Shown: positions 7,825 through 64,000, counted from the stretch's first letter. The stretch is 64,000 nucleotides of DNA from Psilocybe cubensis (GCA_017499595.2 CM039008.1:1054001-1118000); one strand, 5' to 3'. Numbers and translations: made by a program. Notes: generated from the sequence alone by a model not told the origin.

Positions 7825-8029
7825 TCTGGAGCCCACCGCGAGGGAGGGTTAATTAGGATTTTGTATTAGGAACACAGCAATCTACCACTTTATCACTTCT
7901 ATTCCATCCATTTCGACTCTTTTTCTTTGCAGGTTATTTTGCTTCGCTGGTCTATTCTCTAGGCAACTCTAGGCAACTCTAGGCAACAATTCTAGGCAAC
8001 ACTTTCTGACTTTGTAACTGGTTTACGCT

Positions 8030-11911: not shown

Positions 11912-12367
11912 CTATCTGGACGGTGCATGGACATCAGCTTGCTTCCTCAACGCCCTCTCTTTGTTCTCCGATCCCCTCAATTTTTCTTTGTCACCTTTGC
12001 TGTTGCTGGTGTTTCTTCTTCCTCATCGTTATGCCTTTATCCCACCTCCCATTTTATTTCCACATTTCACGTTTCTCTTTTCCATTTCACGGACACTTAT
12101 GTAGATTTTTCATTTGTGCAACAAGTTCTTGAACGCCTCCACTTTTCTTTTATGCGCCTTTTCCTCACATTCACACTCTCAATGGCAACTCCACGCTATA
12201 CAACCTTTTCCTTTACCATTTATTTTCATTTTCTTTCCACTTTATCCATTTGTATGTACGTCGACTGAAAAGTCGTTAAACTAACCTTTATTTATTCCTC
12301 CCTTTTATTTATTTGTTCCACCCCCGCTTCACCACTTCAGTCCGCAAACGAATCCTCAGGTCACCTA

Positions 12368-15300
12368 ATGCAGAGTTCTTGGAGAAACACACGCAACCTC
12401 CCAAAGGAATGCTATACGGAATCTCTATCTCCAATATACACCACCATCACGCCTCCAATACACCTCGAACTCCTACAGAATCGGGAAGGGCTTCATCTTA
12501 TCCACAAAGAGCGAAAAATCAAGCTTATGGACAAGATAAGAAGGACGACCACTCCATTACCTCTGATGGGTCAAGACCTACAGAAATTTCGGATAGATCA
12601 AAGCATTTATGCGAGATCATGGTCACTCAATTCAGATATTACTGCTAAACCCACCGTCAACCGAACTAATTCGGCAAGGTCGTCAAGCTCTCCTACAATT
12701 GGTTTTGTATTCACTGCCGCGTCAGGATTGACACTATCAACCTTCCGAGCCTCCATGAATCAATTCATATCACCTATTCTTTCCCCCTCTTCTGCCAATA
12801 CAGCCTATAAACGAGTCGATCGGAAAGTTAGACCTATAAATTGGGTTACTCCAGAATCGGCCAAAGTTATACGACAAATTCCTGTTGATCCATTATTATC
12901 TCTTCCACCTCTCCCACTCCATCCCCCTGCCTTTACACCAACGACCAGACTCACTCTTGAACGCATACAATCAATGAACATTAACGCCAACAAATTCCTA
13001 TGGCCGGAAGAAGAAAAGCTTTTCCTTCATATTCTTAAACTCAATGAACGCTCACTTGCTTTTCATCAGTCCGAACGTGGAACATTTTCTGAAGAATACT
13101 TCTCTCCATACATCTTTCCTGTTGAGGATCACGAGCCCTGGGTAGTCCGAAATATTCCTATTCCACCCGGCATCAAGGATCAAGTTATCAGTCTCTTACG
13201 TGAAAAGATAGACGCTGGAGTATACGAACCAAGCCAAGCTCCGTATCGCTCTCCAATTTTCTGGGTCAAGAAGAAGACATCTGGTGCTATCCGTCTAGTT
13301 CATGATCTGCAGATTCTTAACTCTATTTCCTATCGAGACGCAGGAGTTCCTCCAGTTCTTGACGACTTTGTGGTTCCCTTTGCTGGTCATTCTATTTACA
13401 CGGTCTTTGACTTATATTGGGGATATGACGCACGCAAAATCCATCCTATGAGCCGAGATCTTACCACATTCCAGTCGCCTATTGGACCTCTTCGACTTAC
13501 TTCAATGCCTATGGAATATACGAATGCAGTAGCGGAATTTCAAGCCTGTACCACCTTCATCCTTCGTGACGAGATCCCTCACGTAGCCAATGTCTTTATC
13601 GACAATGTTCCTATCAAAGGCCCTCCAACACAGTACTTAGACGAGGACGGCAATCCAGAAACACTTCCAGAAAATCCAGGAATACGACGATTTGTCTGGG
13701 AACACGCTCAAGATGTTCATCGAGTTATGCACCGCATGGGATGTGCTGGTGCTACATTTTCTAGACCAAAGACTCAGCTCGCTCAGCCTGAAGTTCTTAT
13801 CCTTGGACAGTTATGCACTCCGGATGGACGACTACCCGATCAGAGCAAGATACAGAAAGTCACTGATTGGCCACGACCAAAGTCTGTTCACGACATCCGA
13901 TCCTTTCTAGGTCTATGCGGAACAATGCGTGTTTGGATCAGAAATTACTCAGCCCTTGTCCGACCGCTCACAGAACTCTATCGTAAGGACGAACCCTTTG
14001 TCTGGACTCAACAACGAGAAGACTCTTTCCAAACTCTCAAAGAAATCATTTCCAATCCTCCTGTTCTCACTTCTATTGACTATTCATCCGATCGCCCAGT
14101 TATTCTTGCCGTGGACACTTCTCACATTGCTATTGGTATCATTTTCTATCAACTTGACAAAGAAGGCATCCGACGACCTGTCCGCTATGGTTCTATCTCA
14201 CTTAATCCATGAGAAGCACGATACAGTCAGCCCAAGCTTGAGTTATATGGTCTTTTCCGTGCTCTTCGAGAATTCCGCCTCTATCTTATTGGAGTCAAGA
14301 ACCTCTACGTTGAAGTCGACGCCAAGTACATCAAAGGCATGCTCAATCAGCCTGACTTGCAGCCTAGTGCTAGTATGAATTGATGGATACAAGGCATTCT
14401 TCTCTTTGACTTCAAGCTCATCCATGTAAAGGCCGGTAATCATCGTGGACCTGATGGACTTTCAAGGCAACAACCAACTTCTGAAGAGTTAGAGGAACCT
14501 CAAGAAGACAATGACTGGCTCGACGATATTGCTCTTCTTAATACGGTCAAATTTTTCCCTACTTTTCTTTTTACTCCCTCTTCTATGCCATCGTATGACT
14601 CTATCTCGCTTCCTTCTTTTATTGCTTCTTCTTCTTCTCAAGAACGGACACTTCGACAAATTCTTCAATTTCTTACAGACCAAACTATACCCCCTTTTCC
14701 CAATTTGCAGTCCCGACGACGATTCCTTGCTCGCGCTACTCAGTACTATCTCAAAGATGATCAACTCTATCGACGACGACAAGGAAGACCTCCACTCTTG
14801 GTTATTCTAGATCCAGACAAGCGACGTCTCATTCTTACTCAAGCTCATGAAGAACTCGGACATCGAGGAGTATACGGTGTGTTTGGAGTTATTCGCATTC
14901 AGTTTTTCTGGCCATTTCTTTTTCAGGATATCAAGCATCATCTCGCTACTTGCCATGAATGTCAGATCAGATCCACCAAGAAAAGCGAAGTTCCTATCAC
15001 TATCACAGCTCCCCCAACTATCTTCACTATCATCAATGTCGACGTCATGTACATGCCCAAATCTGGACGCTTCCGATACGTAGTCCTAGCCCGAGACGAC
15101 TTATCACGTGCACCTGAAGGACGTGCCCTCAAGTCTTTACGTTCCAAAGAGCTGGCCACTTTCTTTTGGGAAGAAGTCATATGCCGATATGGTGCTATTG
15201 CTATTGTACGCACGGACAATGGAGTAGAAGTCTCTGGCGCTTTCAGTCTTTTGATGGAAAAGTACGGCATTCCTCAAGTTCGCATTTCTCCTTACAACTC

Positions 15301-15997
15301 TAAAGCCAATGGATCTATTGAACGTGGTCACATTGACTTCCGTGAATCCATTCTCAAAGCTTGCGGCGACCAACCTCTAGACTGGCCACAGTACGTTCAT
15401 CACACACTCTTCTCTGACAAATGCATCACTCGACGCTCTACTGGACATTCCCCTTTCTACGTCATGCATGGTGTTCATCCTGTTCTTCCATTCGATCTCC
15501 TTGAAGCCACATTTCTAGTTGATGGATTCCGACAAGGAATGAGTTCCGAAGATCTCTTAGCTCTCCGTGTTCGACAACTCATGAAACGAGATGAAGACTT
15601 AGCCAACATAGCCGACGTTCTGAAACAATCACGACTTCAATCCAAAGCTACTTTTGAACAACGATTTGCTCGACGTCTTCGACAAGAAAGCTTCAAGTTT
15701 GGTGATCTAGTCCTAGTCAGGAACAGTCAAGTCGAGAAGGAGATGAATCGCAAGCACAAGCCACGATACCTTGGACCTTACGAAGTTGTACGACAGACAC
15801 GAGGAGGATCATATGTGCTTAGAGAACTTAATGGTACGCAACTAGCTCAAGGCGTAGCTGCTTTCCGACTTCTTCGCTATTTTCCACGAGACGGTTCAGT
15901 CATTCCTCGACCTCAGCTAGACTGGATGATTAGAGAACTTGGACACAAGAGTGAGGAAGATGAAGACATATGGAGCGACGACTTGGACGACTTCTAA
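12368..15997 (+). pseudogene. pol: Gypsy A ORF2: RT-RNase H-integrase, with premature stops
   Basis: FDLYWGY, FIDN (decayed YxDD), LAVDTS, HEELGH…CHEC, VRTDNG, GPY; stops at ~14210 and ~14382. Confidence 0.92.
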
Positions 15998-16056
15998 TCT
16001 ATCCCCCCCCTTCCTTCCGCAACTGGGAACGGTTGATTTCTCAAGTTTGGGACGGA

Positions 16057-17685
16057 TATCATACCCCAATCCTGATTGGAGATGAGATGTTCATTTTGGA
16101 TCTACACACGACGCCCTCAACCCAAGCAGTCATTCTTTCCATAAGTCATCCACACATCTTATCTTATCAACACTTGTCACATGGGAGCCACGTTATTCCG
16201 GATCATGTCACTTTGTCGGATCATCAAGGCTATGCGACGGATCAGTCAACCATCAAACTGCACAGCTTTCTACACTGCCTTGCACAGCCGGACTGTCAAC
16301 TCTATTTTTATCAATTCAATAGTCTTACTCAGCATCAGGCTGCGGATTACTCATTCCAACTTATTTTTGGTTTGTCTTACTCATTCTTTTGTGTTTATTT
16401 ATATCTTTTCTATTGTCTGTTGCGCTTTTATTGTCTTTGTCTTACCAATCTTCTATGCTTTCTGACTCATCCTTGCTTCTTTTATCTAATCTGTATTACC
16501 ATTCACCTTCGTCATACACTTCTTTCTTACTCATCCTATTCATTTCTTATCTGTCGTAGTGTCGATATCGACATGTCTTATTGTTCTTGCTTATTGTTAC
16601 ACTTGCGTAGCCTCATTCTTGACACTTTGTACAGTATATGACTCGGTTTTCAGTAGCTCAGATTGGTATTTCGTTCACGTAGCTTTTAGTATAAAAGCTG
16701 TAGTAGAATTACATGAAATGATAGGAAAGTTACACCCAGTCCCCACTTTCTTCAAAGCAAGTCAATTTTCATCCAAGTCAAGTCAATTTCAAGTCAATCC
16801 ACATCGATTCATTTCAATTCCAAGTTCAAGTTCAAGCCAAGCCCAAACCCAAGTCCAATTCAGTCATCAGTTCCACCCTCTGTCGAGACCAAGTTTACTT
16901 CCATTCATCCGAAGCCATCTTGCTTTCCATTAAGAGAGGATTTCATCCAAGACCAGTCATCCTCCTCATCCAACGCCTCTTCTTCTCAGCGTTGAATATC
17001 TAACTTCTATCCAGACCTCCAGTACTTCCCTACTTCCTCTCCTCCATTCAATCTGTCACCGCTTCTACTCTTTCTACACCTTCCAACCATTGCCGTTAGG
17101 AGTGTATTCAAGACATCCTTTCCCTCCGTCAACTCATCTGGAGCGATTTCATTCGAGACAGACTTAGTCTTTCATCCTCGATTCAGTCAATACTTCTGCG
17201 ACGTATAGCTTCATTCCAAGCTTCAGAAAGATTGTCAATTTAAAGACACTTTCACCATTCTCCAAGATTCAGCCCGTTAACGACATTCCAACTCCTAGTC
17301 ATCTTCTCATCTCCCCTCGGAACGTTCCCCACTCACTTCAGACAACCCCTCTAAGATTCACATTTATTGATTTCTCATACGCATTCTACGCATCTTCTTC
17401 ACGCTTTCCATATACACCCGCCATCCAATTCCACGGTTCCATCCCATTTTCGGAAGGCTTATTTACTATCGTACCCAGACGACCCGGTTATCCTCTTCTT
17501 ACTATTTCGCTTTCGTTACCCTTCACAATCCACACCATCCTAATCTACTTAAATCCTAGGCAGCGTCCTCCCTTAAGAAACTTAGGAGAAGGTTTCGTCC
17601 TATCTAGTCTGGACCACTCTTTCCCTGGGGTTTGTGTTTGTTGGATTACATATAGTTTATAACCAATCACAAACTTTGATCTTTA
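16057..17685 (+). repeat. Gypsy A 3' LTR
   Basis: Preceded by purine tract GGGACGGA; near-identical to the 5' LTR. Confidence 0.95.
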
Positions 17686-18553: not shown

Positions 18554-18822
18554 TGTAGTTGAAAGCAATATGTATAGGGGCGTAATATAGGTAAGATCAG
18601 ATAATGAATGAGTTGTGCCGTTTGGCACTGGCATACAACATTTTAAACACCGCTTTGTCTTGTCCGTCTAGGCATCACAAAGCCAAGACGCCCAGCGTGA
18701 TTGTTGCCATGCATAAATTTCTAACTTTTTTTCTAACTTTTAGAATTGAGTAGGACTATTCATACACATTCCTACCAACACTCGTATCTATCCGCTTACG
18801 TGTTCCTTCGCAATTCGCAATA

Positions 18823-21800
18823 ATGACTTCTGATTCCCAAATCACTCCATTGAACTCAACCAACTACAACACCTGGGCAGGCCAGATGACCGCCTATCTC
18901 CAGTCTAAAGGGATATGGCGCATTGTCAGCGGTGCTAGAGCACAGCCAACGCTCTCAGACAAGCCTACTGCTCAGGAGAAAGCTTTGCTTGAAACCTACT
19001 TTGAGCAGAGAGACAAAGCATGTGGTTTGATCTATCTCAGTTTGGAGAATGATCAGAGGGTTCATGTGGAAGCCATCAAGGATGATCCTATCAAGATGTG
19101 GGATGCCCTCGCCGCTGTACATCAGCAAAAGCGCCCTGGCAACCGCTTTAATGCATATGATGATCTGTTCTCAATCCGAAAGGAGGAAGGTGAAAACCTT
19201 CAAATCCTGATCAATAGAGTTGAGCAAGCCATGTTGCTAATTCAGCAGCTTCGCCCTAAGGGGTTTGATCTGGCTAAGCTTGATGAAGAGCTTGCTTCGC
19301 TTGCTCTGGTCAGGGCACTCCCAGAAGAGTACAGTTCATTTGCATCCTCACTTCTCCTTTTGGACAAGTTGGACAAGGCTACAATTCATCAAGCCTTTGT
19401 CACAGAGGATATACAGCGACGTCGCCGCGCTTCGGAGTTGCCTGCACTCGCCACTGCGTTCCAGACCACTCCAGCCCCTTCTGCATCCAAGCCCAAGTGC
19501 GCATTTTGTGATATGACCAATCATGCAATGGACAAGTGTCACAAGTTCATTGCTGCGCAAAAGGATGCGAAGGAGCGTGTCAAAGCGGCTCGCAAAATCA
19601 ACAGAGCGCACAAGGCCTCAGAGGCATCCAGTGAGGAAAAAGAGTCCAAGGACATGGAATTTGCTGGAAATGCAAGTGCTCTTAATACCGATGTTCCCTC
19701 TTCCATTTCACCCCAAACTAATGACGATTGGATTGCAGACACAGGTGTGACTTCTCATATGACGCCCCATTGCAATTGGGTTAGAAATTACACCCCCCTT
19801 CGCATTCCAATCCGATTAGCAGATGAACGAGTTATTTATTCTGCAGAGGTGGGCATTGTGTTCTTTGAACCAGTTGTAAATAGAATAAAGTCAAGAGGCG
19901 TCGAGTTAACTAGAGTTTTACATGTACCAGATCTCTGAAACAATCTACTGTCTGTTCTATACCTCACAAAGCACAAAGGCTTCAAAATCACCATTGATGC
20001 TAATCTGATGGAGTTTCATCGCAAAGGAGCTTGTCTCTTCTCTGCAGATGTTAGTACATCAAACTGCGCTTTATTGAACGGTTATACAGTTCCTATTTCG
20101 GAGTCTGCCTTTATTTCCTCCAATTCCACTCTACCCCTTAATATCAGTCTCTGGCATCGTCGCTTTGCTCATCATAGCTACACTGACATCCAGAAGATGA
20201 TTAGAGAGGGTATGGTCACTGGACTCAAGCTGAATTCACAGCAACAGCCTGACCCCATTTGTGAACCTTGCCTTGCAGGCAAGATGCATTCCAACCCATT
20301 TCCTTCTTCACCAAGCATGTCAGATGTTCCGCTTGCGCTTATCTTCTCAGTTCTGAAAGGTCCTATCTCGCCCCCTACTCCTGAAGGCTATTGCTACTGG
20401 ATAACCTTTATTGATGACCATACAAAGAGTAGAGCTGCTGTACTTCTTAAGCGCAAAGCAATGCATTCAGTGCGTTTCAAACGTACAAAGCATGGGCTGA
20501 GAACAAATTAGGCTTTAAAATCAAAGCACTGCAGGATGACAAAGCTGGTGAATACATGTCAAATGCTTTCATCAAATTCACTGACCAGTGTGGCATTGAG
20601 CATCGTGATACAACACGAAATCGCCCACAACAGAACGGAGTTGCAGAGCGTGCAAATCGCACCATGGCAGAATATGTTACTTCCATGCTCAATAAGGCTT
20701 GTGTTCCACCTTCGTTTTGGGGTTGCTGTGTTGCAGCATACATGCATGTATGGAATCGTGTTCCTACAGCTCCTCTACTGGACCAGACTCCGTATGAAAG
20801 CTGGAACAAGCGCAAACCTGATGTTAGTCATTTGAGGGTTTGGGGTTGCCTTGCATATGTTTATGTTCAGGGAGATAAGCGCAAATCGTTGCAGCCTCAT
20901 ATGGAGAAGTGTATCTTTGTTGGGTATCCTACTGGGTACAAGGGCTGGGAGTTTTACAACCCAGTCACCAAAAGGTTCATTATCTCTGAGAGAGCTGATT
21001 TCGACGAAAGGTGCTTCCCTGGGGTGTCCACTGGCCCTATGCCAAAGTTTGACCTTCTTCCCACTTTTTCTGCAAGTGCACCACCTCCCAATTCAGGGGG
21101 GGACTCTAATGGCTTCAAGTTTGATGATGATGAGGATGACTCTACTCCAAGTCCTGTCATTGAGCCAGAAGTGCCTATTGCGCCTCCTGAACAGCCAGCT
21201 GAACCGCCACAGCCTGAGGCCGTTCCTGCACCTCCTCCTAAGCCTGCACGCCGCCAGCGTGCTCCAGTTGATCCTGCAACGTTGAGATGCACTACTCGCG
21301 TTCCTAAGCAGCCTGGTGAATGGTGGAAGGTCTCACATGATCCTGAACCACCTGAAGCCAATGATCCTGGATTTGAAGAGGTGGAGTTTGCTGGGCTTGT
21401 TTCAAGCGCAGATCCGCGCACATTCAAACAGGCAATGAAAGCGCCTGATGCACACATGTGGGAAGAGGCTGCTAACACAGAATTCAATCTGTTGCAGCAC
21501 AATCAAACTTGGGAGCGAGTTGAGCTCCCTCCGGGTCAAAAGGCAATTGGCTGTGGTTGGGTCTTTAAAATCAAGCGAAATGCAGATAGCAGTATAGAGC
21601 GCTACAAGGCTCGTATTGTTGCCAAGGGCTACAGTCAGCGCCCTGGCATTGATTACCATGAGGTCTTTGCTCCTACTTTCCGCCCTGCTACTTTCCGCTT
21701 GATTGTGGCTCTGGCCGCTATTGGAGACTTGAAGTTGCGCTCTGTTGATATTACAGCTGCTTTCACTAAAGGTGACCTAGACGAAGAGATTTACATGTTA

Positions 21801-22970
21801 CAACCTGAAGGATTTCACCAAGGTGGTCCTAACATGGTTTTGAAGCTCAAAAAGTTGCTCTATGGTCTTAAGCAGTCTGCACGTCAATGGAACCTCAAGT
21901 TGCATGAGGCATTGTCAGATATGGGGTTCAAGCGTATAGAATCAGATCGCTCTGTCTACATCTATTCAGATGGAGATGTGAAGATTATTGTTCCCATTTA
22001 CATTGATGACATTACCTTTGCCTCCAAATTGGACGCTGCCATAGATAGAGCTGTTAAGCAGCTAGCTGCGTATTTTGAACTCCGTGATTTGGGTCCTACA
22101 CAGTATTTACTTGGTGTTGCCATTGAGCGAGATATGGCTGCTAAAACCATTTCCTTGCATCAGCGTCAGTATATCCTTGATATGCTTGATACATATGACA
22201 TGACTGATTCTAATCCGGTCAAAACACCTATGTCTGTGGGCACTGTTCTGTCCAAGGCAGACAAACCTCAGAATGGAGATGAGGTGGAATTTATGCGAAA
22301 TGTTCCCTACCTCAATGCAGTTGGCTCCTTGCAGTATCTAGCCACCATGACCCGTCCTGACATTGCTTTTACTGTGTCCTATCTGGCACGCTTCAACTCC
22401 AATCCTGGGCCTAAGCATTGGGCTGCGGTTAAACATTTATTCCGCTACCTCAGAGGCACTCTGGATTACAAGTTGACTTATTCTGGCGCTGTGGGCCATG
22501 ATAACTTTGTCACCTACACTGATGCTGCACATGGTGATTGTGTAGATACTGGACGCTCTACAAGTGGTTATTTGACCGTTCTAGCTGGAGGTGCTATTGG
22601 CTGGGCAAGCAAACTCCAAACTGTTGTCACTCTGTCTACTACTGAGGAAGAGTATATTGCTGCGGTGGAGGCAGCCAAGGAGATTGTGTGGATGCGCAAT
22701 ATCCTTGAGGAGTTTGGCTACACAGTCACTAAGCCTTCTGTGCTGCATATGGACAACCAGTCATCTATCAGTGTTTCCAAGAATCCAGAGCACCATGGAC
22801 GGATGAAGCACCTTGATTTGCGCTATTATTGGCTTAGGGATGCTGTTGGTGTTGGAAAGATTTCTCCTTCTTATATTCCTACTAATCAGCAAGCTGCTGA
22901 TATTCTTACCAAACCCCTCTCACCTCCTAAAGTAGACTTTTGTAGAGATAAAATGGGTCTCAAACTTTAA
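18823..22970 (+). pseudogene. Copia gag-pol polyprotein (stop at 19936, frameshift near 20460)
   Basis: NYNTW, CAFCDMTNHAMDKC knuckle, WIADTG protease, WHRRFAH/CEPC, PQQNGVAER, YKARIVAKG, YIDD, YTDA RNase H, ADILTK. Confidence 0.95.
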
Positions 22971-23033
22971 TCTTTCTTTCTCTGTTTTGCTTTATTTTTC
23001 TTTGTTCTGGAGACTTGTCAGAACAGGGGGGAG

Positions 23034-23411
23034 TGTTAAAACTGCTCTCTATGTCTCCCTCACTTTGCTATCTTATCAGATTAGATTACTTTCTTCTTAT
23101 CTTCATTTGCTCTCCAGACCATTCTAGACACATGATATTTATCAGTCCATAGACTGGTCTGGACCGGACCAGAGTAGACCTAGGTAGACCAGAGTACTTG
23201 AGTCTACACAGTATATAGTCACTCTAGTTTACATCCTGAAGTCCCCAGTTACTCACTTTGGACTTCAGGTTAGTTTGTTAGCACTTTGCTCAATTCACCC
23301 AGTTACTCACTTCGGACTTCAGATGCTTTGTGCTCGCTTATCCCTGCGCCCTATGTTCTATAACTAGGTCGCCGAGTAGCTCACACTGCCCCAAGCTTGC
23401 CTGCTTCAACA
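23034..23411 (+). repeat. Copia 3' LTR
   Basis: Follows PPT AGGGGGGAG. Confidence 0.93.
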
Positions 23412-31602: not shown

Positions 31603-32140
31603 TCAAGTGTTTAGCAAAAAAACTGTTCGAATGACTTAGCAAACTGTATATGCTCCTGTTTGGTCAATTCTTGGAAAAATCACATGATCAGTGTGCCATC
31701 CTTTAGCTAATACCCTCTAGTATACCTGTGAATAATCTCATATTTTTAACATTTTTAATTTCAAAATTATAAATTAATCTTTTTATATGTGACCAACACT
31801 CGAACGGTTTTTTTGCCCACTGTAGCTATTATATACCTATTCAACATGTAGTCACATGATTTTATTGATAGTTGTTTGGTATATCAACAAAGTCATGTGA
31901 TAATACATAGTTTATAGCATTTAAATTACTAGCAAAAAAACTGTTCGAATGACTTAGCAAATTGTGTATGCTGCTGTTTGGTCAATTCTTGGACAAATCA
32001 CATGATCAGTGTGTCATTCTTTAGCTAACACCATATAGTATATCTATGAATAATTTCATATTTTTAACATTTTTAATTTCAAAGTTATAAATTAATCTTT
32101 TCATACGTGACCAACACTCAAACGGTTTTTTTGCCCACTG
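31603..32140. mobile_element. Tc1 remnants: right TIR (31603-31822) joined at a TA to the reverse-oriented left end of another copy (31823-32140)
   Basis: Homology to 62115-62334 and to the reverse complement of 60730-61047; both end CACTG|TA. Confidence 0.88.
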
Positions 32141-32142
32141 TA

Positions 32143-32912
32143 TCTGGGGGCAAGGTACGTGTATTCATTGTGATGTTTCCTTCTCAAACTAACATTATAT
32201 AGACCTTCTTTTAACCAAAACAAGGTAGTAGATTATACTTTTTCAGTAAGTAATAGATGATTCTCATTTGGTGCTCATTAGTACTCACCATACACTAGGA
32301 CCAACTATTTTGAACACTTGGATGAAGGGTCAGTAATTTAGTCTCTATTTAGTGTGCTTTACACTGCTAACATTACTTGTGAAAGGTTACGGACACCCAA
32401 ACACTTGGATACAGACTTGAAAGTACGTACATGTAAGTATATGCGCTTTTTATTGATTTTTGATTCATCTTTTAATGCATATATCTTGGTCCTCCATTGC
32501 CCGTACTACTTCAGCTGTTCTGAATGCTTGAAGCTGCCTTTTCCCATGCGTCTTCACCATTCACATCTTCTTTGTATCATTGAGTGTAGGAATTGTCAGC
32601 TTCAGGTTCTGTTTTGGTGTTGAGGGTCCGGAGCCGTGCACGCTAGCATGTGGGTTCAATGTGTCTTATATAGTTGTACTATTTTTATGAATAAATAATC
32701 TATTTTTCATTATGATTTTTATGTGCTCCAAAAGGCATTACAATTGCAATACCCAGAAATATTGTAAACCTCAAATTAATTTATTTACACTGCAATATTT
32801 CCGGTTTCTTACAATATTTCAAGAGTATTGTAATGCAGTGCAAGAATTTCAAAGAAAAAAATATTTTATTGGGTTTGTAATGGTTTGTAATCTACCCACA
32901 CTTTTTATGATG
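32143..32912. mobile_element. Right-end fragment of a CAT…ATG-ended DNA element
   Basis: End GGGTTTGTAATGGTTTGTAATCT…TTTTTATGATG|TA resembles 54778-54821; left boundary uncertain. Confidence 0.55.
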
Positions 32913-41845: not shown

Positions 41846-43183
41846 CTGGCATAGACACAACACGCTACACTTGTATAGGTTTCATCAGATTGTAGCCAGA
41901 CACTTTATCAATGTAAGACCTTTCATTGTGATCTGTAACAATGTTGTTATGTTCAAGAAATGGCAATCCAAGAATTACGAGCATGCAAAGGCCAGGTGCA
42001 ATAAATGTGTAAACCCACTTTGATATCCACACATTATCAATTGATATTACTACTAGTTTAACACAATGAGAGAGAGACACAATTTTTTTTCTTTAGAGCT
42101 TGGGGATATTGCAACACAAATAGATTCAGGCTTCTTTAATATAATACGGGGTAGCTTTAACTCCTCAACAACCTCTGGTTAAATCAACACAATATATGCA
42201 CCATTGTCAATTAAATATGTGAATGTTTTGTTTTTCTTTTTTGGTGGAAGGTTGAGGGAAGGGCAGTGATGCCCATACTTCCTCTTCGTTAAAGAGAGGC
42301 AAATTGCACCCCACTAGTTCAGGCCACCCCGGAGTAATGTCTTAGTACACCTATTACTAGATAGTGCGGGACTGGAATGTCATGGAAAAGCCGAGTTTGA
42401 CAAGCTTCCACCTCGCAGAGCGTGGGATCACACAATTGACCTCAAACCAGACGCCAACTCTATTAAGGCACAGATATACCCTTTATCCCCGTCACAGTCA
42501 AGAGTAGCGGATGAGTTTGTCAAAGAGGAGCTAAGGACAGGCTGCATTCCACCCTCAACGAAGCCGTATGCCTCACCCTTTTTCTTTGTTCAGAAAAAGG
42601 CTCTCTTCAGCCGGTGCAGGACTACAAGAAGCTAAACAAGATGACAATATGTAACCAATACCTTTTACCCCTCATCTCAAAACTCATGGACAAGCTGAAA
42701 GGCGTGAGGTTCTTCTCAAAACTTGACATTTGGTGGGGTTACAATAATGTCAGAATCTGAGAGGGCGATGAACACAAAGCCACATTTATTGCTAACAAGA
42801 GCCTTTTCAAACCCCTCATTATGTATTTTAGGCTCTGCAATTTGCCGGAAACTTTCCAAAATATAATGAACAATCTTTTCAAAGACCTCATAGCCGAAAA
42901 ACATCACTGGATGAAGCATTGAATAATATGAGTCAAATTATTCAAAGATTATGCAAAATTTAATATGTAAAAAATTTTAAATTTTTGGTGGCAAAATATT
43001 TGAAATGTATTTAAATGAAAATTTAAATAAGTTTTCAGTAGATATTTAACAATTATACAAGATTGATTTGAAGACTATGTAATGAATAAATATTTTATGA
43101 GTTGAATAGTTATTGAATTATTGATTACCAATTATTCTTGAAAAATTTAAATTTAAATATTGATTGAATAATAGACAATAGTT

Positions 43184-44042
43184 GTCTGTTTTCCTTGTCT
43201 ATCTACACCTGATCTCTGCCATCTGAACCCAATCTGTTGATTTTGGTCTCATCTGACCACCAGACCCTTGCCCAGTCATCCACAGTCCACTCCAAGTGCC
43301 TTTCTGCAAACTCCAATCTAGCCCTCCTATGCTTTTTTGATAACAAAGGCTTCTTTTGTTTTGCTACTGAGACCATGCCAGTTGATTTGAGTGCATTCCT
43401 AACTGTTTGAGGACTGATATTCTGGCCATTAATAGTAGCCAGAGACTTGGCAGCTTGCACAGCATTCTTGATTTGTCCAGTTCGAATTCCATGCTTGGTA
43501 TAGGTGATATTGGCACCAGTCAGCTTCTTTGGGCATCCTCCATGGGAAACCACTGCCTCAGGACAGTAGTCTTGGCAAATTTTGGTGATAGAACCAGCAC
43601 TAGCTCTAGTCTGGGCCTTGATAGAGGCATAGGAGTGACCAGAAGTAAGAAGAGAGACAATAGTAGCAATGATTGCTTTAGAAAGGGGTTTCATGCTTGA
43701 TTGGGGGGATAAAGAGGTTGGTTGTAGCTATTATATACCTATTCAACATGTAGTCACATGATTTTATTGATAGTTGTTTGGTATATCAACAAAGTCATGT
43801 GATAATACATAGTTTATAGCATTTAAATTACTAGCAAAAAAACTGTTTGAATGACTTAGCAAATTGTGTATGCTGCTGTTTGGTCAATTCTTGGACAAAT
43901 CACATGATCAGTATGTCATCCTTTAGCTAACACCATATAGTATATCTGTGAATAATCTCATATTTTTAACATTTTTAATTTCAAAGTTATAAATTAATCT
44001 TTTTATACGTGACCAACACTCGAACGGTTTTTTTGCCCACTG
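43184..44042 (-). mobile_element. Truncated Tc1 element: left TIR and N-terminal half of transposase
   Basis: ORF 43203-43694 (MKPLSK…WSDETK); TIR ends CACTG|TA; same family as 60730-62334. Confidence 0.9.
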
Positions 44043-44285
44043 TATTTATGGCTGGCACTCATTTATATTTTCTAGGGAAATATATATTGGTAATGATACT
44101 TCCTATTGAATTTAAACATATTTTTGGGACTTTGGGATTACCTAATAAGGAAACCCAGAGTCTAGATACTACTAGTGCTTATACATATTTTTCTATAAAA
44201 TATATATTGGTAAAATTATGTTTTTTGTTGGTATTTGAAATATTTTTCTCATAAATAGAGTCTAGGAATATCCAATTAGGGAAGC

Positions 44286-44963
44286 TGTCATATACTGTAC
44301 TCTCTCAACTCCGTCATACAACATTGTCAGTCAAATTCCACATCCAACTTCCATCTCCCTACTTTGCCTAATTTCCGTCTCTCCAACTTCAGTCTGACTT
44401 TGTATATAGACTTGTCTCAGACACTTGTCTTATTTTTTTCCTAAACCTTATTCCTTTCATTCATTATCTTATTCCTATTCCTTATTCCTTATCTTTATTC
44501 CTTATGACTCATTTCTTGGTGGTTCATCTTTATTCCAATAGTAGTATATAAACCCCTCCTGTTGTAGGCTAGAACCCCCAAGCTGATTATCAACTTGGGT
44601 AACTTGGGTAACCTAGACATCTTAGTCCATTTGCTACTTTGTGCAACTTTGTTTCAAACTCTAATTCCGAATTTGATTGGACTTAGGCTCTAAGAAACTT
44701 AAGTTTACTCCATCAATTTTAATCCAACTTTGACCAATACTTGACCAACTTTGTCTTTAATGTAGTCTCTTGCCTAGTACTGTTCTCCTCTTAGATCTCC
44801 ATATCCAAATTAGGACACAAGATATACGAAGAGCACAGCACATAAGCTGAAGCTAACCCCTCCAACCACTAAATTTGACAGTAACTTTTTTCTCTTACTT
44901 CAGCCTCCTACTTCCATCTACAAACTTGCCCTCAACTTCATTCCTCTTAATACAACCCTAATA
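44286..44963 (+). repeat. Solo LTR (678 bp)
   Basis: TG…TA (likely decayed CA) with perfect 5-bp TSD GAAGC; second, inverted copy at ~53549-54253. Confidence 0.85.
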
Positions 44964-44966
44964 GAA

Positions 44967-45545
44967 GCAAAAATGTAATCCAGAATGTTGCAGAATAATA
45001 TCTGTGAATTCTGGAATGTTGCGGGAAAGAGTGTGTACTTTCCAGAAAATTGACAAGCAGTGCAAAATGTGTGTTTCCAGTTGAAATCAATGTCGGAATG
45101 ATATTTATACTTTCCAGAAAACTGACAAGCAGTACAGATTGTGTGTTTACAGCAAAAATGTAATCCAGAATATTGCGGAATGATATCTGTGAATTCTGGA
45201 ATGTTGCGGAAAAGTGTGTATACTTTCCGGAAAATTGACAAGCAGTGCAAATTGTGTGTTTCCAGTTGAAATCAATGTCGGAATGATATCTATACTTTCC
45301 AGAAAACTGACAAGCAGTACAGATTGTGTGTTTACAGCAAAAATGTAATCCAGAATATTGTGGAATGATATCTGAATTCTAGAATGTTGCAGAAAAGAGT
45401 GTGTACTTTCCGGAAAATTGACAAGCAGTGCAAATTGTGTGTTTCCAGTTGAAATCAATGTTGGAATAATATCTATACTTTCCAGAAAATTGACAAGCAG
45501 TACAGATTGTGTGTTTACAGCAAAAATGTAATCCAGAATATTGCA
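44967..45545. repeat. Tandem repeat, ~3.1 copies of a ~185-bp unit with internal subrepeats
   Basis: GCAAAAATGTAATCCAGAAT recurs at 44967, 45152, 45337 and 45520. Confidence 0.9.
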
Positions 45546-47115
45546 AAATTGCATTTTTCTAGCAGATTAACAAATAGTTTGCATTATTTATTTATAATTA
45601 AAACCAATTCTGGCATATTGAAATGTAATATTTCTGAATTCCAAAACATTGTGCAAATTCCAGAAGACTAACAAGTAGCATATATTACATATTCATATTG
45701 ATTTTTGAAATGTTGCAAAATGATTATTTATATCTGTACTTTCTAACAAAATGACAAGTAATGTGGATTCCATATTCACTGTCACAATGAATTCTGATGT
45801 ATATATATATACTGACAAGTGATTTGCAGTGTGGATTATATATTCAACTTTACAAGCAATTTTAGAATATTGCAGCTTGGAACCAAATAGTAAATGCACT
45901 TTGGAAAAGATTGACTATTAGTATATATTGTATATTTACTGCACTAATGAATTGCATAATATTGTAGAATAGTAAATCTACCATACCAAAAAATACCTAG
46001 TAGTGTGAATTGTATATTTACAATTATAATGAGTTTCAAAACTTTAAAGGCTTTTAACTATTTTATATTGTTTTTTCTCTTCAAATTAACTATAACTTTA
46101 AATAATCTTTGAATTTCCATTACCTAACTATTTTGCAAATATGCAAAATCTATTTAAAAATAAATTTTACTTGATTTTGATTTTTCTTTGTATAATTTTT
46201 GCTTATTATTCTTATATTTTTTATAAACTTCCACATTTTTCTTTGTATAGTTGTTGTATTATTTTCATTTACTTATTGAATTATGCATTTAAATAATAAT
46301 TGGTAATCTTTTAAATAATCTTTATGTATACTATTGTCCATTATTCAATCAATATTTAAATTTAAATTTTTCAAGAATAGTTGGTCATCAATAATTCAAT
46401 AACTATTCAACTCATAAAATATTCATTCATTACATAGTCTTCTAATCTATCTTGTATAATTCTTAAATATCCACTGAAAACTTATTTAAATTTTGATTTG
46501 AATACATTTTAAATAATTTGCCACCAAAAATTTAAAATTTTTTATATATTGAATTTTGCATAATCTTTGAATAATTTGACTTATATTATTCAATGCTTCA
46601 TCCAGTGCATGTTGTTATCTATATGGACAATATTCTCATATTTTCTAATGATATCTGTCACCATTTGTCAGGGCAATACTATAATCAGTGTGACAAGGCC
46701 ACCAACAAAGATCAAGCAAGGGAGAGAGAGAGAGAGCAGAGGGAGAGTAAGAGAGCAAAGAGAGAATAAGAGAGTGAGAGAGACTCAATGATTCTAAGAG
46801 ATCACACCAATGATAGTGGATATCCTAAGAGATTGAAGCTGAAGCTACAGCTACCTACAAGTCCAGTATTTATACTCTACAGCTATTCTAGAATATTCTC
46901 TACATTACATCATAAAGGAAGGTTAAAGAATAAAAGTGACATCATATAGAAAAAGGATGAGTAAGACTAGGAATCATATAGAATTTACTAGAAAGAAGTG
47001 GAGCAAGAAGGCTGTGATGAAAGAAATAAACTATCTAATCAGATAATTGATAAGATAATGAAAGGATAAGATAATTCTGTGAAGATAAAGAGGGGAAACT
47101 GGAGAAACCCTGACA

Positions 47116-50100
47116 TCACCCCCTCTTTAAGGCACATTTTCCACAATGTGCACATGGATGGGTTAGTTTAAAGGGTTTAAGAAGAGGAGGAGGTTCAGTA
47201 AAGTTAATAATAGGAGTGAAAGAAAGTCTATCAAAGGTCACAGCAGAAATCCTTCTAGGTGCTGAAGGATGTTTGGCATGGAAGTCCTTGATAGCCTTAG
47301 AAGCATTTTTCAAATGCTCTGCAGGCTCCCAAGTGCATTCTTCATTAGGATAGTTCTTCCACTTGACCAAATATTGAAGTTTGTTTTTAAAAAGTCTGCT
47401 GTCCTTGATAAATTCAACTTCCCACTTAGGATTTTCTCCTTGAATGACAGGTGGTGGTCTAGAAGGAGGCTTTCTTCCTACAATATCTGGGTGATAAGGT
47501 AGAAGTTTAACCACATTGAACACTGGATGGATTTTCATGGTAGATGGCAGCTTAAGCTCATAGGCATTAGGGCTAATAACTTTGGTAATTTTGTAAGGCC
47601 CATATCTTTTATCATCCAATTTCTTGGAGGGCCTATCAGTTTTGAGGTCCTTGCCATCCAACCATACCAAATCCCCAACTTTGTACTGAGTTGGAGTATC
47701 TCTGTGTCTATTATAGAATTTAGCCATATCATCAGCAGCTTTTCTAAGTGCAGACTCTGCTTCTTTCCTGGCTTCTTCCATATTTTTCACAAAAATATCC
47801 ACAGTGTCCATTTTACTATCTCTAAGGGGTTCAGTGCCCATTCTGGGATGTCTGCCATTATTGAGCATAAATGGTGTCTGCCTGGTTGAAGCCTGAACTC
47901 TATTGTTATAAGAGAATTCAGCTAGAGCTAACCATTCAACCCAATCATCTTGTCTATGGTTTATAAAGAGTCTAAGATACTGCTCAATTTCTTGGTTAAC
48001 TCTTTCAGTCTGACCATCAGTTTGGGGATGGTAGGCTATAGATGAGGCTGTCTGGATACCAAGTATTGAGTTGAGTTCTTTTATAAACCTTGAGACAAAC
48101 TGTGGACCTCTATCACACAGAATTTTAATGGGTAAGCCATGGTATTTCCAGACATAATCTCTGTATAGTCTGGCTGTCCCTTCAGAAGTGACTTCATCTG
48201 TAGTAGGGATAATGTGGATCATTTTACTAAGTCTATCCACAACCACCATAATGGCATTATACCCTTGACATTCTGATAACCCCATAATAAAGTCCACAGA
48301 GATGCATTGCCAGACATCAGAGGGAATCTCAGTAGGAATTAAAAGGCCAAGAGGTTTGGCTGGAAAGGTTTTGGTTCTGTTGCATCTATCACAACCTCTG
48401 GTATAGGCTGCAATAAAATGTGACATTCCTGGCCACCAATAATTCCTAGAGACTAGCTTAATTGTCTTCCATTTCCCTGGATGTCCAGCAATGAAGGCAT
48501 CATGGTGCAGTTCCACAATCTTTCTTCTAAGATCTTTGTCCTTGGAAATATACACCTTCCCCCTGTAGAGAATAAGGCCTTGTTCTTCTGACCATTCCTG
48601 TCCTTCAATCTTCTTGGTAGAAGATTTCTTGAGCTCTTGAACTGCCTTGACCACCTTTTCATCCATCTCCTTAGCTTCTCTAATCTTCTTAAGAAGATCA
48701 TTTTCTGCACCAGTAATGGTAGCATGACCCTGCTTGAGAGCCTGGATTTTAAAGTAGGAAGGTTTGAGGAGAACTACATTTTGGTTATCATTCTCTCCCT
48801 TTTTATGATCTGATCTTCTAGACAAAGCATCTGGCTTAAGAGATCTTTTACCAGGCCTATGATGAAGAGTAAAATCAAATCTGGACAGGAAGAGTGACCA
48901 TCTGGCTTGCCTTCTGCTAAGCTTTTGGGCAACCATAAAGTACTCTAAGTTTTTGTGGTCTGTCCAAATCTCAAAGGAATGTTAGGTTCCTTCAAGATAA
49001 TGTCTCCATTCATCTAGTGCTCTGATAATAGCCAGCATCTCTTTGTCATGGATCTCATAATTCCTTTCTACTTCAGATAGACTCTTAGACATAAAGGCTA
49101 CAGGATGCCATTTCCCATCTGATCCTTCCTGAGATAAAACAGCCCCAGTAGCATAATCTGAACTGTCTGCTTCAACTTTATATGGCTTGTTATCATCAGG
49201 GAAAATCAAGATAGGTGAAGAAGTGACTTTCTTCTTTAACTGGTCAAAGGCTTCCTGCTGTCTAAGACTCCATCTCCAGACTATTCCTTTCTTTGTCAAT
49301 TCATGAAGGGGCTTAGCAATGTCTGCAAAATCCTCTATGAACCTTCTATAAAAATTAACAAATCCCAAGAATGATTGGACATCCTTGACATTTTCAGGTT
49401 CAGGCCATTTAGAAACTCCCTCTACCTTGACAGGATCCATCTCAATCCTGCCTTGTGAAATGATTAGTCCAAGATATTCAATCTTTTCCTTTTCAAATTC
49501 ACATTCCTCTGCTTTAAGGTAGAGTTTGTTCTGTTCTAGGATTTGCAGAACTTGCTTGACTACCTCTCTATGATGATCAAGAGTTTCAGTGAAAATTAAA
49601 ATGTCATCCATATAGACAATGACAACATTTCCATCAATAAGCTCAATAAAGATATCATTCATCATAGTTTGGAAGGTAGCAGAACTATTGGTTAAACCAA
49701 AGAACATGACCAATGGTTCAAACAGCCCTCTATTGGTTCTAAAGGCTGCTTTTCATTCATCTCCCTTTTTGATTCTGACATTGTTAAATCCCCACCTAAC
49801 ATCAAGTTTGGTGAAGTATTTGGCTTTGCTGAGTTTGGTGATAATGTCAGAAATCAATGGAAGGGAGTAGGAGTTCTTGATGGTCATTTCATTCAGTTTC
49901 CTATAGTCCTGGACAAGCCTAAGAGATCCATCCTTCTTCTTGACAAAGAATACAGGGGAGGCCATAGGTGACTTGGAGGGTCTAATCCTGCCAGATTTCA
50001 GATTTTCCTCTAAAAAGGCATCAAGTTCCTTTTATTTATTGGGAGAAAGAGGATAAATCTTGGATCTGTAAGGTTCAGAACCAGGTTTCAGCTCAATAGC

Positions 50101-50994
50101 ATGATCCCAAGGCTTCCTGTCTGGTAGCCTATCAAAAGATTCCTTTGAAAAAACACCTTTAAACTGGTGATAGTGCTTAGGGACAGTTTCTTCAAAGATT
50201 TTCTTAGGAGAATCAGCTTGCTGATGAGACTCTTCTGCTAATCTTTGAGACATAGTAGAAGTAGCATTAATAGACTGCTTCTGAGGATGAAGGTATGAGA
50301 TGAAAATTCTGTCCTCAGGCTCAATCTCAGAATCAGAAGAATCTTCAATAGAATCATCTTCTTCTTCATCAAATTGAGGGAGTTTCCTCCTTTTGACTGC
50401 AGCTATTCTCTGCCTCTTTTTTCTGGCTCTTTTGGCTTCCATTTGGCAGTCAGAGGGACATCTAATAAACTGAACATCCCCTGTCTTCCAATCAATATCT
50501 GGATTATGGTGCCAAAGCCAAGTATGTCCAATGATAGCAGATTTGTCTCCCAAGTCACAAACAGCAAAGGTGGCCCTTTCTGTATGGTTCTTGTGTACCA
50601 TAATTAAGTCTACTTCCTCATGGATAGAGCCACTCTTGTTGAGAGTACCATCAACATTATAGACTGGAATGGCTCTAGGAAGTTTCCTTGTGTTGAGATT
50701 ATGATACTTCACAAAACCAGAATGCAGAAAGAGGCCAGTAGCTCCAGAATCAAGCAAAGCATCAACAGATAACCTTTTCTCTGTGTCCATTGTCTTTAAG
50801 ATGACAGACAAATGGGTAGAGGTTTTAGGATTATGGTTGAGGATGTAGATCTTTTCAGGGAAGGTAGAAAGAGAGGAAGAAGAAGACATGATTTCTGCAC
50901 CAGAATCTGAAGACTGAGGATCAAGTCTGTCAATTTCATTTTCTGGTACATTAAATCTATTCCATTGGGACATGTCTTTCACCAATGGTGCTTC
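47116..50994 (-). pseudogene. pol: Gypsy F pol: protease-RT-RNase H-integrase-chromodomain (three in-frame stops)
   Basis: [56 protein letters not shown]…YLVKWKNY…TWEP. Confidence 0.93.
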
Positions 50995-52103
50995 TAAAAA
51001 TTTTTCTTTTCCTCATCTTTCTGCTCTTTGCCTTCCAAGATTAATTTCCCAAAGTAGTCAGCCAGTTCTTCATGGGTCATAGCATTGATGTTAACTGATG
51101 ACCTGCAGTTTACAGCCTTATGACCAGGCTTTCTGCACTTGAAGCAAACAATTGGCCTAACTGACTTCTATCCAGAGTCAACCTCCATGGGAACTACATC
51201 TGGTTGCTTTGCCTGAGCACCAAAGGTCCTTGAGCTGCTGTTGGAAAAGACTGGAGGATTTGGAGTAGGCTTAGGAACAGCCTTGGGAGTTGGGGCTTTA
51301 AGAAAGGGAGAAGATGAGGAGGAGGAAAGAGACTTGGTAAAGGCCTCACTCTGTCTCCACTGCCTATCTAGCCTAGTACTCCATTTAATCCATCCATCCA
51401 AGGTTTTGGGCATGTCAGGAATATAGTAGACTGCATTCCTGAGATTTTCATTGAGCCCAGCCTTGAATTGGTCTACCAAAGCAGCATCATTATACCCAGT
51501 ATCTGAGATCAGAGCCCTGAAGCTAGCAACATACTCATCAGCAGTCTGTCTGCCTTGCTTGAGCATGTGCATTTTATGCTTAGCTGTGTTGGAGGGGTCT
51601 GAATCTGCAAACACTTCCCTAAATTCATAAACAAAGTCAGCCCAAAGACCTTCTTGGGACTGAGCATTGTCTATTACTTTAGTCTTCTCATATGCCCACT
51701 TTCCAGCAGTACCTCCTTTCATATGAGATAGAGCACAAATAACTTTCTGAAAGTCATCTGTAATCCCTTTCCCATAGAAATATAATTTGAGCTGACTAAG
51801 GAAGTTTTCTGCCTTCTCCATAGAACCATCAAATGGATCTGGAGGTGAGACTTTAATGACAGAGTGTGAACAGGAAGGGGCAACATGAGGGGTAGGGAAA
51901 GAGTGAATATCTAGAGCAGCAGGTGGTGGTGGTGGTGGTGATGATGGTGACTGACTGACTGGTTGCTGAGGGTGTGGTGGAGTGGATGATGACTGCTGCT
52001 GCTGTCTAAGAAAATTCAACTCTTGGGTAAGGAGCTGGACCTGATGCATGAGCTCTTCCACAGAAGGAGTGGTGGGAGGCAATTGGGAGGGGTCCATGTC
52101 CAT
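50995..52103 (-). pseudogene. gag: Gypsy F gag (one premature stop) ending in a -1 slippery site
   Basis: PDPFDGS, LKQG, PMEVD, CFKCRKPGHKAVNC knuckle after TAG at 51168; AAAAATTTTTAG at ~51005-50994. Confidence 0.88.
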
Positions 52104-53254
52104 GGGTAGGGGTAGGTAGGCTCTCTGATGTGTGTGTGGGAGAAGCTATCTACTAAAAGTGCCCTTGAAACTATACTAAGTATTCTAAAAAAAATATCTA
52201 TCTACTGGATACCCAGTTGTCACACCACTCAGGGCTCTAAACCTAGGATCACAGGGTTACTGGATATTTCCTAGACCACCAAAAACAGAACACTAGTAGG
52301 ACTGTGTCTGCCCCAACAGTTGGTATCCCTATCTACTAAGTTCACACACAGCACACAACAGAGAGTAGAAAAGATGATGAGCCAAAGGTCTTGAGGAAAG
52401 GTCTTGAGGAGGATGTTGAAGATTGGTGGAGATGTAGAGGTTGGTAAGAAGATTGGTGAAGAGGTTGATGAAGAGGTTGGTGGGTTGGAAGGTGGGGAAG
52501 AAGGTTGAGATGATGATGTTGAAGAGGTTGAAGAGGTTGAAGAGTTTGGTGTTGAAAGAGAGATGGTGGAGTTGTCTTGAGAGAGCTTCAATCTTCTGTC
52601 AGGGCAACACTATAATCAGTGTGACAAGGCCACCAACAAAGATCAAGCAAGGAAGAGAAAGAGAGAGCAGAGGGAGAGTAAGAGAGCAAAGAGAGAATAA
52701 GAAAGTGAGAGAGACTCAATGATTCTAAGAGATCACACCAATGATAGTGGATATCCTAAGAGATTGAAGCTGAAGCTACAGCTACCTACAAGTCCAGTAT
52801 TTATACTCAACAGCTATTCTAGAATATTCTCTACATTACATCATAAAGGAAGGTTAAAGAATAAAAGTGACATCATATAGAAAAAGGATGAGTAAGACTA
52901 GGAATCATATAGAATTTACTAGAAAGAAGTGGAGCAAGAAGGCTGTGATGAAAGAAATAAACTATCTAATCAGATAATTGATAAGATAATGAAAGGATAA
53001 GATAATTCTGTGAAGATAAAGAGGGGAAACTGGAGAAACCCTGACACCATTGTGCCATCGTCAATCGTGTTTTTACTATTCTGTGTGATAATAATCTATA
53101 TCTGAAGCCGGAAAAATGTGAATTCAAACAGACCAAAATCAAATTTTTGGGCATCATCATATCCAAAGGCAAGCTGCAGATGGACCCAAAGAAGGTTTGC
53201 ACTATTTCCAAATGGCCTAAACCTAACAACAAGAAGGATGTCCAACAGTTCCTA

Positions 53255-63889: not shown

Positions 63890-64000
63890 AAATAAAAGTA
63901 ATATCATATGGAAAAAGGATGAGTAAGATTAAGAATTATATAGAATTTACTAGGAAAAATAGAGCAAGAAGGGTGTGATGAAAGAAATAGACTATCTAAT
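63890..64000 (-). repeat. Diverged fragment of a Gypsy F-family LTR (runs off window)
   Basis: Matches ~46929-47039. Confidence 0.8.

Follow-up and report, generated by a model that had tools for sequence, protein, structure and literature searches.

A Ty3/gypsy chromovirus without CpG in Psilocybe cubensis, and evidence that its CpGs were lost before insertion

The window analysed here, a stretch of 64,000 nt from Psilocybe cubensis (GCA_017499595.2 CM039008.1:1054001-1118000), seems to consist of nested transposons only, and no host gene was seen in it. On the minus strand, at 46666-53046, lies an element that is a Ty3/gypsy chromovirus by every domain and end feature tested, and that does not contain a single CpG dinucleotide. 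Its insertion site lies within the reverse transcriptase (RT) gene of a gypsy element that is older and runs on the plus strand, and the two flanks carry on one host RT frame (YMDNILIFS... / ...LKPEKCEF). The features of the CpG-free element, including its long terminal repeats (LTRs), are given below from its 5′ end to its 3′ end.

46661-46665 (left) and 53047-53051 (right), no strand: target-site duplication CCATT, by direct sequence reading
52597-53046, minus: 5′ LTR (element sense), 450 bp, 0 CpG
52798-52805, minus: TATAAATA, putative promoter in the 5′ LTR
52761-52771, minus: putative self-primer and transcript start, ~27 nt downstream of TATAAATA
52584-52594, minus: putative primer-binding site AGATTGAAGCT, 2 nt past the 5′ LTR and complementary to the 11 nt at 52761-52771
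50994-52103, minus: gag, with its ATG at 52103 and its stop TAG at 50994-50996 (Ty3_capsid E 3.2e-10, Retrotrans_gag E 1e-09)
51384-51869, minus: Ty3 capsid domain of gag (Pfam)
51105-51146, minus: CCHC zinc knuckle CFKCRKPGHKAVNC of gag, by sequence reading
50997-51003, minus: candidate -1 frameshift heptamer A AAT TTT, with the gag stop TAG (50994-50996) directly after it
50515-50769, minus: aspartic protease region, a weak assignment (gag-asp_proteas E 4.4e-4, 21.2 bits against a cut-off of 28.2 bits)
49759-49944 and 49459-49731, minus: reverse transcriptase, RVT_1 (E 3.6e-20 and 9.3e-09)
49603-49614, minus: YMDD motif, codons TAT ATG GAT GAC
48988-49272, minus: RNase H, RT_RNaseH_2 (Pfam, E 1.9e-36)
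47275-48540, minus: integrase as a whole (Pfam matches)
48367-48540, minus: integrase zinc-binding domain H2C2 (Pfam, E 2.8e-20)
48025-48309, minus: integrase catalytic core, rve (Pfam, E 9.5e-11)
47491-47676, minus: SH3_Tf2-1 (Pfam, E 1.7e-18)
47275-47424, minus: chromodomain PF00385 (E 4e-16), residues 520-569 of a C-terminal piece of 621 amino acids
47119-47128, minus: polypurine tract AAAGAGGGGG, adjoining the pol stop and the 3′ LTR
47116-47118, minus: stop codon TGA of pol, next to AAAGAGGGGG and reported as overlapping it
46666-47115, minus: 3′ LTR (element sense), 450 bp, TG...CA ends, 0 CpG (13.7 expected)

In its arrangement the element resembles the fungal chromoviruses of the Tf1/sushi type. 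Gag is followed on the minus strand by protease (PR), RT, RNase H and integrase (IN) in the order PR-RT-RNaseH-IN, a chromodomain is found at the integrase C-terminus along with SH3_Tf2-1, the target duplication is 5 bp long, and the LTRs have TG..CA ends, reading TGTCAGGG...CCCTGACA. A further likeness is that the putative primer-binding site is the complement of part of the LTR upstream of it, and not of a tRNA. The segments at 52584-52594 and 52761-52771 are exactly complementary over 11 nt and are paired in the minimum-energy fold of 52560-52780; as a whole, this fold is no better than that of shuffled sequence (z -1.28). No TGG-type tRNA primer site adjoins the LTR. Judged by these features, self-priming of the Tf1 type is probable for the element; Tf1 is described as priming itself in this way, and the same has been suggested for Tj1 (PMC4600332).

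The element differs from the Tf1/sushi type in having no CpG, in standing without a close named relative, and in having gag and pol in different frames with a candidate -1 heptamer. Tf1, by comparison, is a single open reading frame. The heptamer is presumably slippery, being of the type X XXY YYZ, and by three-frame translation its -1 frame is the pol frame, so that gag and pol may be joined by a -1 frameshift at this point. A TGA at 51013-51015 is in the pol frame but upstream of the frameshift site, and was not counted as a defect. The closest proteins found are metagenome sequences of 72-85% identity; named proteins come no closer than ~50% identity, the nearest being Tf2-like retrotransposon proteins from Lyophyllum and Amanita (Agaricales).

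For a sequence of 6381 bp with 40.6% G+C, base composition predicts 261.1 CpGs, and the count is 0. The same letters in reverse order are common, with 215 GpC (observed/expected ratio, O/E, 0.82). All 87 arginine codons are AGA or AGG (together AGR) and none is CGN; NCG is used for none of the 390 NCN codons, and C|G junctions between codons, of which 85 would be expected, are absent. Parts that are not translated or not transcribed (the U3 of the LTR and the untranslated region, UTR) are likewise without CpG. The element forms most of a CpG-free run of 7648 bp (45411-53059), whereas the second-longest CpG-free gap in the window measures 1012 bp. On the right, CpGs resume at 53059 and 53066, 13 bp beyond the element. 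The left 1254 bp of the run belong to another nested insertion outside the element and, at 23% G+C, would hold just 17 CpGs by expectation. This AT-rich flank was at first a candidate for part of the host element, and was rejected as such when tblastn placed it in a separate insertion (~42893-46590) that splits the host RT. Because the other 2-kb bins of the window have a CpG O/E of 0.10-0.94, the lack of any CpG over 6.4 kb is far outside chance.

These counts agree with an earlier note on this DNA, made from the sequence alone. It had claimed that 46666-53046 contains no CpG although GC dinucleotides are common, that CpGs reappear at ~53059 and ~53066, and that arginine is encoded by AGA/AGG with a catalytic YMDD written GAT-GAC. 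It had also named a CpG content like that of neighbouring elements as the result that would speak against it, and proposed the comparison of O/E; the neighbouring bins, as stated, do not approach the element. At its edge the window cuts through another, older LTR of this family, of which a fragment is included:

63891-64000, plus: fragment of an older LTR, 89% identical over 110 bp

It has no CpG in 168 aligned bases where 2.8 would be expected, a result of little weight alone.

A technical explanation, systematic miscalling of methylated CpGs in the assembly, is hardly credible. Normal CpG calls resume 13 bp beyond the element, and contigs from three other labelled organisms match it at 97-100%. 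Fourteen public runs (eight organism labels, six studies) contain the sequence of the element or part of it, and in one of them, X17, which is independent of the assembly, 23,595 Illumina reads match it at 99% identity or more, with even depth across the element. The raw reads of X17 that were used make up 26% of the run (1,632 million letters); 72,366 of them fall on the element, 42,133 of these at 95-99% identity.

The two LTRs indicate when the CpGs were lost. They are identical at 445 of 450 positions and differ at exactly five sites without an indel, close to the ~5/450 of the earlier note. One difference is T/C, another is T/A, and the other three, all G/A, lie in a GA-rich run; none of the five is CpG-derived (CG/TG or CG/CA). 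The G/A changes had been considered as a signature of G>A at GpA (TpC-type) sites, which was dropped since the region is GA-rich. Mismatches of the TG-vs-CA and TG-vs-CG kinds, which independent CpG loss in the two LTRs would leave, are absent.

Other repeats in the window supply a calibration. The 1.63-kb LTRs of a CpG-rich gypsy element (6196-7822 and 16057-17683) differ at 10 sites, six of which are at CpG, even though CpG positions make up ~6% of the LTR. A second pair of repeats (1-657 and 22755-23411) has 13 differing sites, seven at CpG. Taken together, 13 of the 23 differences between repeat pairs of at least 98% identity lie at CpG, and CpG sites in these repeats mutate ~20-40x faster than other sites. 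The second pair has ~1% non-CpG divergence and retains 13 and 8 CpGs; the LTRs of the CpG-free element, with 1.1% divergence, are of similar age. Since repeats of similar age keep most of their CpGs despite this hypermutability, most CpGs of the element would also have survived since its insertion, and in-place loss of ~260 out of ~260 is therefore excluded.

It is in this light that decay after insertion has to be judged, by which the element would have arrived with an ordinary CpG content and lost all of it in place through methylation-driven mutation or a process like repeat-induced point mutation (RIP). CpG hypermutation is certainly active in the window, the neighbouring elements are CpG-depleted and damaged at arginine codons, and the low-CpG relatives found in metagenomes are decayed copies. 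Yet between the LTRs, at 98.9% identity, there is no difference of the CG/TG/CA type (0/5, against 6/10 and 7/13 in the other window pairs), the pair of equal non-CpG divergence still has its 13 and 8 CpGs in 657 bp, and the coding sequence and the reads, described next, do not look like those of a relic. Decay in place is accordingly a very improbable origin of the CpG-free state. The evidence supports the view that the absence of CpG predates insertion and is a property of the replicating lineage.

The element in the window is nevertheless one dead copy. Four premature stops interrupt it, one in gag and three in pol:

51168-51170, minus: premature TAG in gag
50032-50034, minus: premature TAA between PR and RT, private to the window copy (1320 of 1334 X17 reads have another letter at 50034)
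49753-49755, minus: premature TGA in RT, private to the window copy (1347 of 1360 X17 reads have another letter at 49753)
48982-48984, minus: premature TAA in pol (RNase H), private to the window copy (1387 of 1400 X17 reads have another letter at 48984)

At the three pol stops, 98-99% of X17 reads have a sense codon, and this without a new CpG. The X17 reads show the window copy to be the odd one out at six places; none of the six majority letters makes a CpG, and all six private changes are C:G>T:A transitions outside CpG. The four stops include none of the type CGA>TGA; the earlier note had ascribed them to non-CpG transitions. The CpG-free state gave no protection to the window copy, which was inactivated by ordinary C:G>T:A transitions at non-CpG sites.

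Apart from these stops, the coding sequence is close to intact. All 11 arginines that are invariant among relatives are kept, each as AGA or AGG, and the integrase deviates at six of 155 columns where at least nine of 11 relatives agree. In pol, the density of stops is 0.23 per 100 codons. It lies between 0.54 and 1.70 in the six relatives whose O/E is below 0.1, and over all 88 relatives it tends to rise as CpG O/E falls (Spearman -0.62). Neighbouring elements in the window have Q, H, C, W or stop at invariant arginine positions; in the host element, six of nine aligned positions read Q, H, H, Y, Q and Q. Damage of this kind in the neighbours had been pointed out in the earlier note. The retention of 11/11 arginines and the presence of just four stops, none from CGA, both speak against decay in place.

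The window copy belongs to a family of high copy number. Depth in X17 is 1,315-1,728 inside the element and 87-94 in the adjacent host flank, and at the LTR ends 1,551 and 957 loose read ends run out into many different flanks, whose consensus agreement is 0.35 and 0.34. Relative to the flank there are at least ~16 copies; if single-copy depth is ~36-40, a value derived from the 41-47 million letters of contigs in runs of the same label, the family would number ~35-45. Of the reads from these ~16-45 other copies, about one third match the CpG-free sequence at 99% or more, a further point against decay of the window copy in place.

The family is also polymorphic in X17. Among the variants are a 68-bp deletion (33 reads; 47279-47348), a 1387-bp internal deletion (15 reads; 48878-50266), a 13-bp insertion after 52383 in ~21% of reads, and one-base deletions in the 5′ UTR at 52537 (~64% of reads) and 52187 (~41%). 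Another run, X14, has five short contigs of 98-99% identity; that it consists of RNA is a guess, and it was not used as evidence.

A relative of the family occurs in run X12, which bears a different organism label. It is very abundant and ~83-86% identical, with a contig word depth above 3,000. The run also has low-depth contigs that match the window copy at 97-100%, so that X12 combines two diverged sublineages of the family. Variant evidence comes from 40 of 797 variant rows, apparently picked largely by X12 depth. At none of the 39 differing sites listed does the X12 relative create a CpG. Nineteen of these are T>C or A>G changes, among which ~4.5 would be expected to create a CpG and none does (P=0.006). 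The differences change 36 codons, 26 of them synonymously, and five of the 10 non-synonymous changes are private defects of the window copy. Since the differences are mostly synonymous, as under purifying selection, the window and X12 lineages diverged while replicating and without gaining CpG. The absence of CpG is probably a property of the family.

More distant relatives place the element in a wider setting. A scan of metagenome DNA gave at least 80 loci of 45-54% identity, the protein relatives of 72-85% not being among the matches listed, and a scan of viral contigs gave nine loci of 42-48% identity; no relatives were found in the prokaryote genome contigs scanned. Across the 80 metagenome loci listed, CpG O/E ranges from 0.01 to 1.22. 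Within tight clades, low-CpG copies stand beside CpG-richer sisters and have longer tips and more stops, and such copies are products of ordinary decay. The most extreme is L068, a distant chromovirus locus of 11,403 bp with five CpGs where 383 are expected (O/E 0.01) and five stops in 570 integrase codons, an example showing that decay can remove nearly all CpGs in some fungal hosts. The nearest sister clade of the CpG-free element is rich in CGN, with an O/E of 0.5-1.0. In a tree made by a quick method, the element is alone on a long branch (0.44), from which the extent of CpG loss across the clade cannot be read.

The largest clade uses 30-46 AGR against 0-10 CGN codons for arginine, even at an O/E of 0.6-0.76, and throughout the 64-member clade of L068 nearly every arginine codon is AGA or AGG. 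AGR use had been considered as evidence of purging and was rejected as non-specific. In the comparison with related chromoviruses, which the earlier note had proposed, the AGR codons of the element thus do not set it apart.

CpG avoidance might also act on RNA or on composition, through CpG-sensing RNA restriction, through a codon or AT bias, or through import from a CpG-suppressed donor. CpG is self-complementary, and avoidance at the DNA level and at the RNA level are inseparable by sequence; relatives in AT-rich context also favour AGR, and AG/CT (O/E 1.38) and GG/CC (1.19) are enriched in the element. However, the LTR U3 and the UTR are CpG-free as well as the coding parts, TpA is no more depleted than in the CpG-rich neighbour (O/E 0.70 against 0.65), and a CpG mutation bias at the DNA level is visible in the same window. 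To our knowledge, no CpG-sensing RNA restriction exists in fungi. An origin of this kind is unlikely, if less so than decay in place.

The interpretation favoured here, with a probability of about 0.8, is that the element is a dead copy of an abundant and recently active chromovirus family whose lineage lost every CpG before this insertion, by CpG mutation combined with selection. The earlier note had likewise proposed that CpG was purged during the replicating history of the family, and the LTRs, the calibration, the coding sequence and the X12 relative support this. The ~20x faster mutation of CpGs in repeats is the signature that deamination of 5-methylcytosine leaves in CG-methylated transposons. 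The repeats of the host genome would be CG-methylated, and methylated CpGs would deaminate; over many rounds of residence and retrotransposition, CpGs would be converted one by one. Only copies in which the changes were silent or tolerable would replicate, with AGR for arginine, NCH for serine, proline, threonine and alanine, and no C|G junctions. The endpoint would be a coding, CpG-free master element that offers no substrate to CG methylation and no targets to CpG hypermutation. That methylation is the mutagen, and that the CpG-free state alters silencing, are inferred steps of this scheme, and evasion of methylation would be a plausible consequence of CpG loss. Pleurotus methylates its DNA mainly at CpG, and its LTR/Gypsy families are repressed, with methylation levels of 26-59% (PMC6191308).

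Several observations weigh against this interpretation. The rate calibration comes from small counts (10 and 13 differences), and the family-wide statement from one full copy and 40 of the 797 variant rows. In X17, A>G or T>C variants reach a share of at least 5% at 211 places, so that some copies may carry CpG. The preference for AGR is common to relatives that keep CpG and gives no independent evidence of purging. Finally, the TpG/CpA O/E of the element (1.17) is above that of the sister clade (0.87-0.96 in L002/L003) and barely above that of the CpG-rich window neighbour (1.09), with decayed neighbours at 1.26-1.34, and a footprint of deamination is neither excluded nor demonstrated. The TpG/CpA excess was dropped as a test of recent deamination, being ambiguous since the baselines of the comparators differ.

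The loss may, more tentatively, have been adaptive, positive selection having favoured CpG-free copies that escape CG silencing and hypermutation and so out-replicate copies with CpG. At a rate 20-40x higher, passive equilibrium would leave 0.025-0.05 x 261, or 7-12 CpGs, and zero lies below this; old dead neighbours in the window still have an O/E of 0.10-0.3. The conserved arginine codons, where deamination would be lethal, are all AGR, and read depths of 1,315-1,728 against 87-94 put the family far ahead in abundance of the host family in which it sits. Selection for variants that shed the target has also been proposed for Gypsy-like elements of Microbotryum (PMC5381629). On the other side, the exposure of a lineage can far exceed that of any recognisable dead copy, so that zero needs no positive selection; the rate ratio is derived from 23 differences; L068 nears zero, with its 5 CpGs in 11.4 kb, by mutation alone; and a CpG-rich gypsy element with 99.4% identical LTRs lies in the same window, so that families with CpG have been recently active too. 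Positive selection is thus possible but doubtful, and the same caution applies to the idea of a counter-defence, in which the LTR promoter, UTR, gag and pol would have been completely recoded and the element made invisible to CG-specific methyltransferases and immune to hypermutation.

That basidiomycete transposons undergo CpG or TpCpG hypermutation is established (PMC3318451; for Rhizoctonia solani AG8, PMC4014442), relics hypermutated at these sites are reported by Clutterbuck 2017, as cited in PMC11451569, and the excess of CpG transitions in transposons of Agaricomycotina has been attributed to deamination of 5-methylcytosine (Horns 2012, PMC3318451). The present case is like these relics in the dinucleotide targeted, in the kind of host and in the excess of C>T at CpG in the window repeats. 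It is unlike them in that relics are decaying copies of a CpG-bearing consensus, whereas here the replicating lineage is itself probably CpG-null, and the window copy lacks the damage of decay.

In Gypsy-like elements of Microbotryum, TpCpG is scarce at non-synonymous positions (PMC5381629; PMC3318451), and it has been suggested that transposon variants lacking the target are favoured (Horns 2017, PMC5381629; Hood 2005, as cited in PMC3318451). An ancestral fragment of 938 bp still had 35 target sites there, and shedding was proposed only (PMC5381629). Here, by comparison, no CpG of any context is left in 6.4 kb, LTRs included, and the agaricomycete-like host is not known to have a RIP-like process.

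A more distant likeness is with vertebrate RNA viruses and lentiviruses, in which CpG is partially suppressed and ZAP, a sensor that is an RNA-binding protein, is evaded. In both cases a parasite is recoded, with its proteins kept, so as to remove a dinucleotide that the host uses; in the element the likely agent would be CG methylation of DNA with its mutagenic by-product, and the loss is total. No report of a fungal retrotransposon family wholly without CpG was found in the literature searched, with supplements and most subscription journals outside its scope, and a term search in the available text of a 2026 review of fungal methylation (PMC13297926) gave no passage on evasion. CpG hypermutation and the idea of target shedding are thus already published; that a family which still codes and was active recently should have lost every CpG appears to be an extreme without precedent.

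In basidiomycete transposons, a shortage of CpG is as a rule taken for damage that a successful host defence left on dead copies. Here it is complete, and is found in a lineage that retained its genes and went on multiplying. For annotation, it follows that low CpG alone is no marker of the age or death of a transposon. The element is a candidate case of a transposon that outlives a defence by shedding its target, which was formerly only proposed (PMC5381629). If CpG loss is indeed a counter-defence, it would explain why tens of near-identical copies exist while CpG-bearing neighbours decay. The element would then be the counterpart, at the level of DNA, of the CpG suppression seen in vertebrate viruses, and could serve as a natural CpG-null reporter of the part that CG methylation plays in transposon silencing in fungi. 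The window also offers a paired natural experiment, with two recently active LTR families close to each other, one with ~50 CpGs per LTR and one with none.

Other insertions and repeats noticed in the window are the following.

6196-17683, plus: young, CpG-rich Ty3/gypsy-like element, CpG O/E ~0.8-0.9
18754-22970, plus: Ty1/copia element (gag, RVT_2), CpG O/E ~0.5, TpG/CpA 1.34, in intermediate decay
~42893-46590: nested insertion of ~3.7 kb, which interrupts the host RT at a point ~70 bp upstream of where the CpG-free element is inserted
1-657 and 22755-23411: repeat pair, ~98% identical, 22.8 kb apart
31821-32143 and 43723-44045: further repeat pair, ~98% identical, 11.9 kb apart

Each of these repeat pairs probably represents the LTRs of a large element into which other elements later inserted. 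The LTRs of the CpG-rich gypsy element differ by an internal inversion, a 355-bp segment (7073-7427) being reversed in the other LTR (16934-17288). The nested insertion at ~42893-46590 has three copies of a 185-bp tandem repeat (44966-45518), and its last 626 bp are 19.5% G+C, with 43 G and 79 C on the plus strand.

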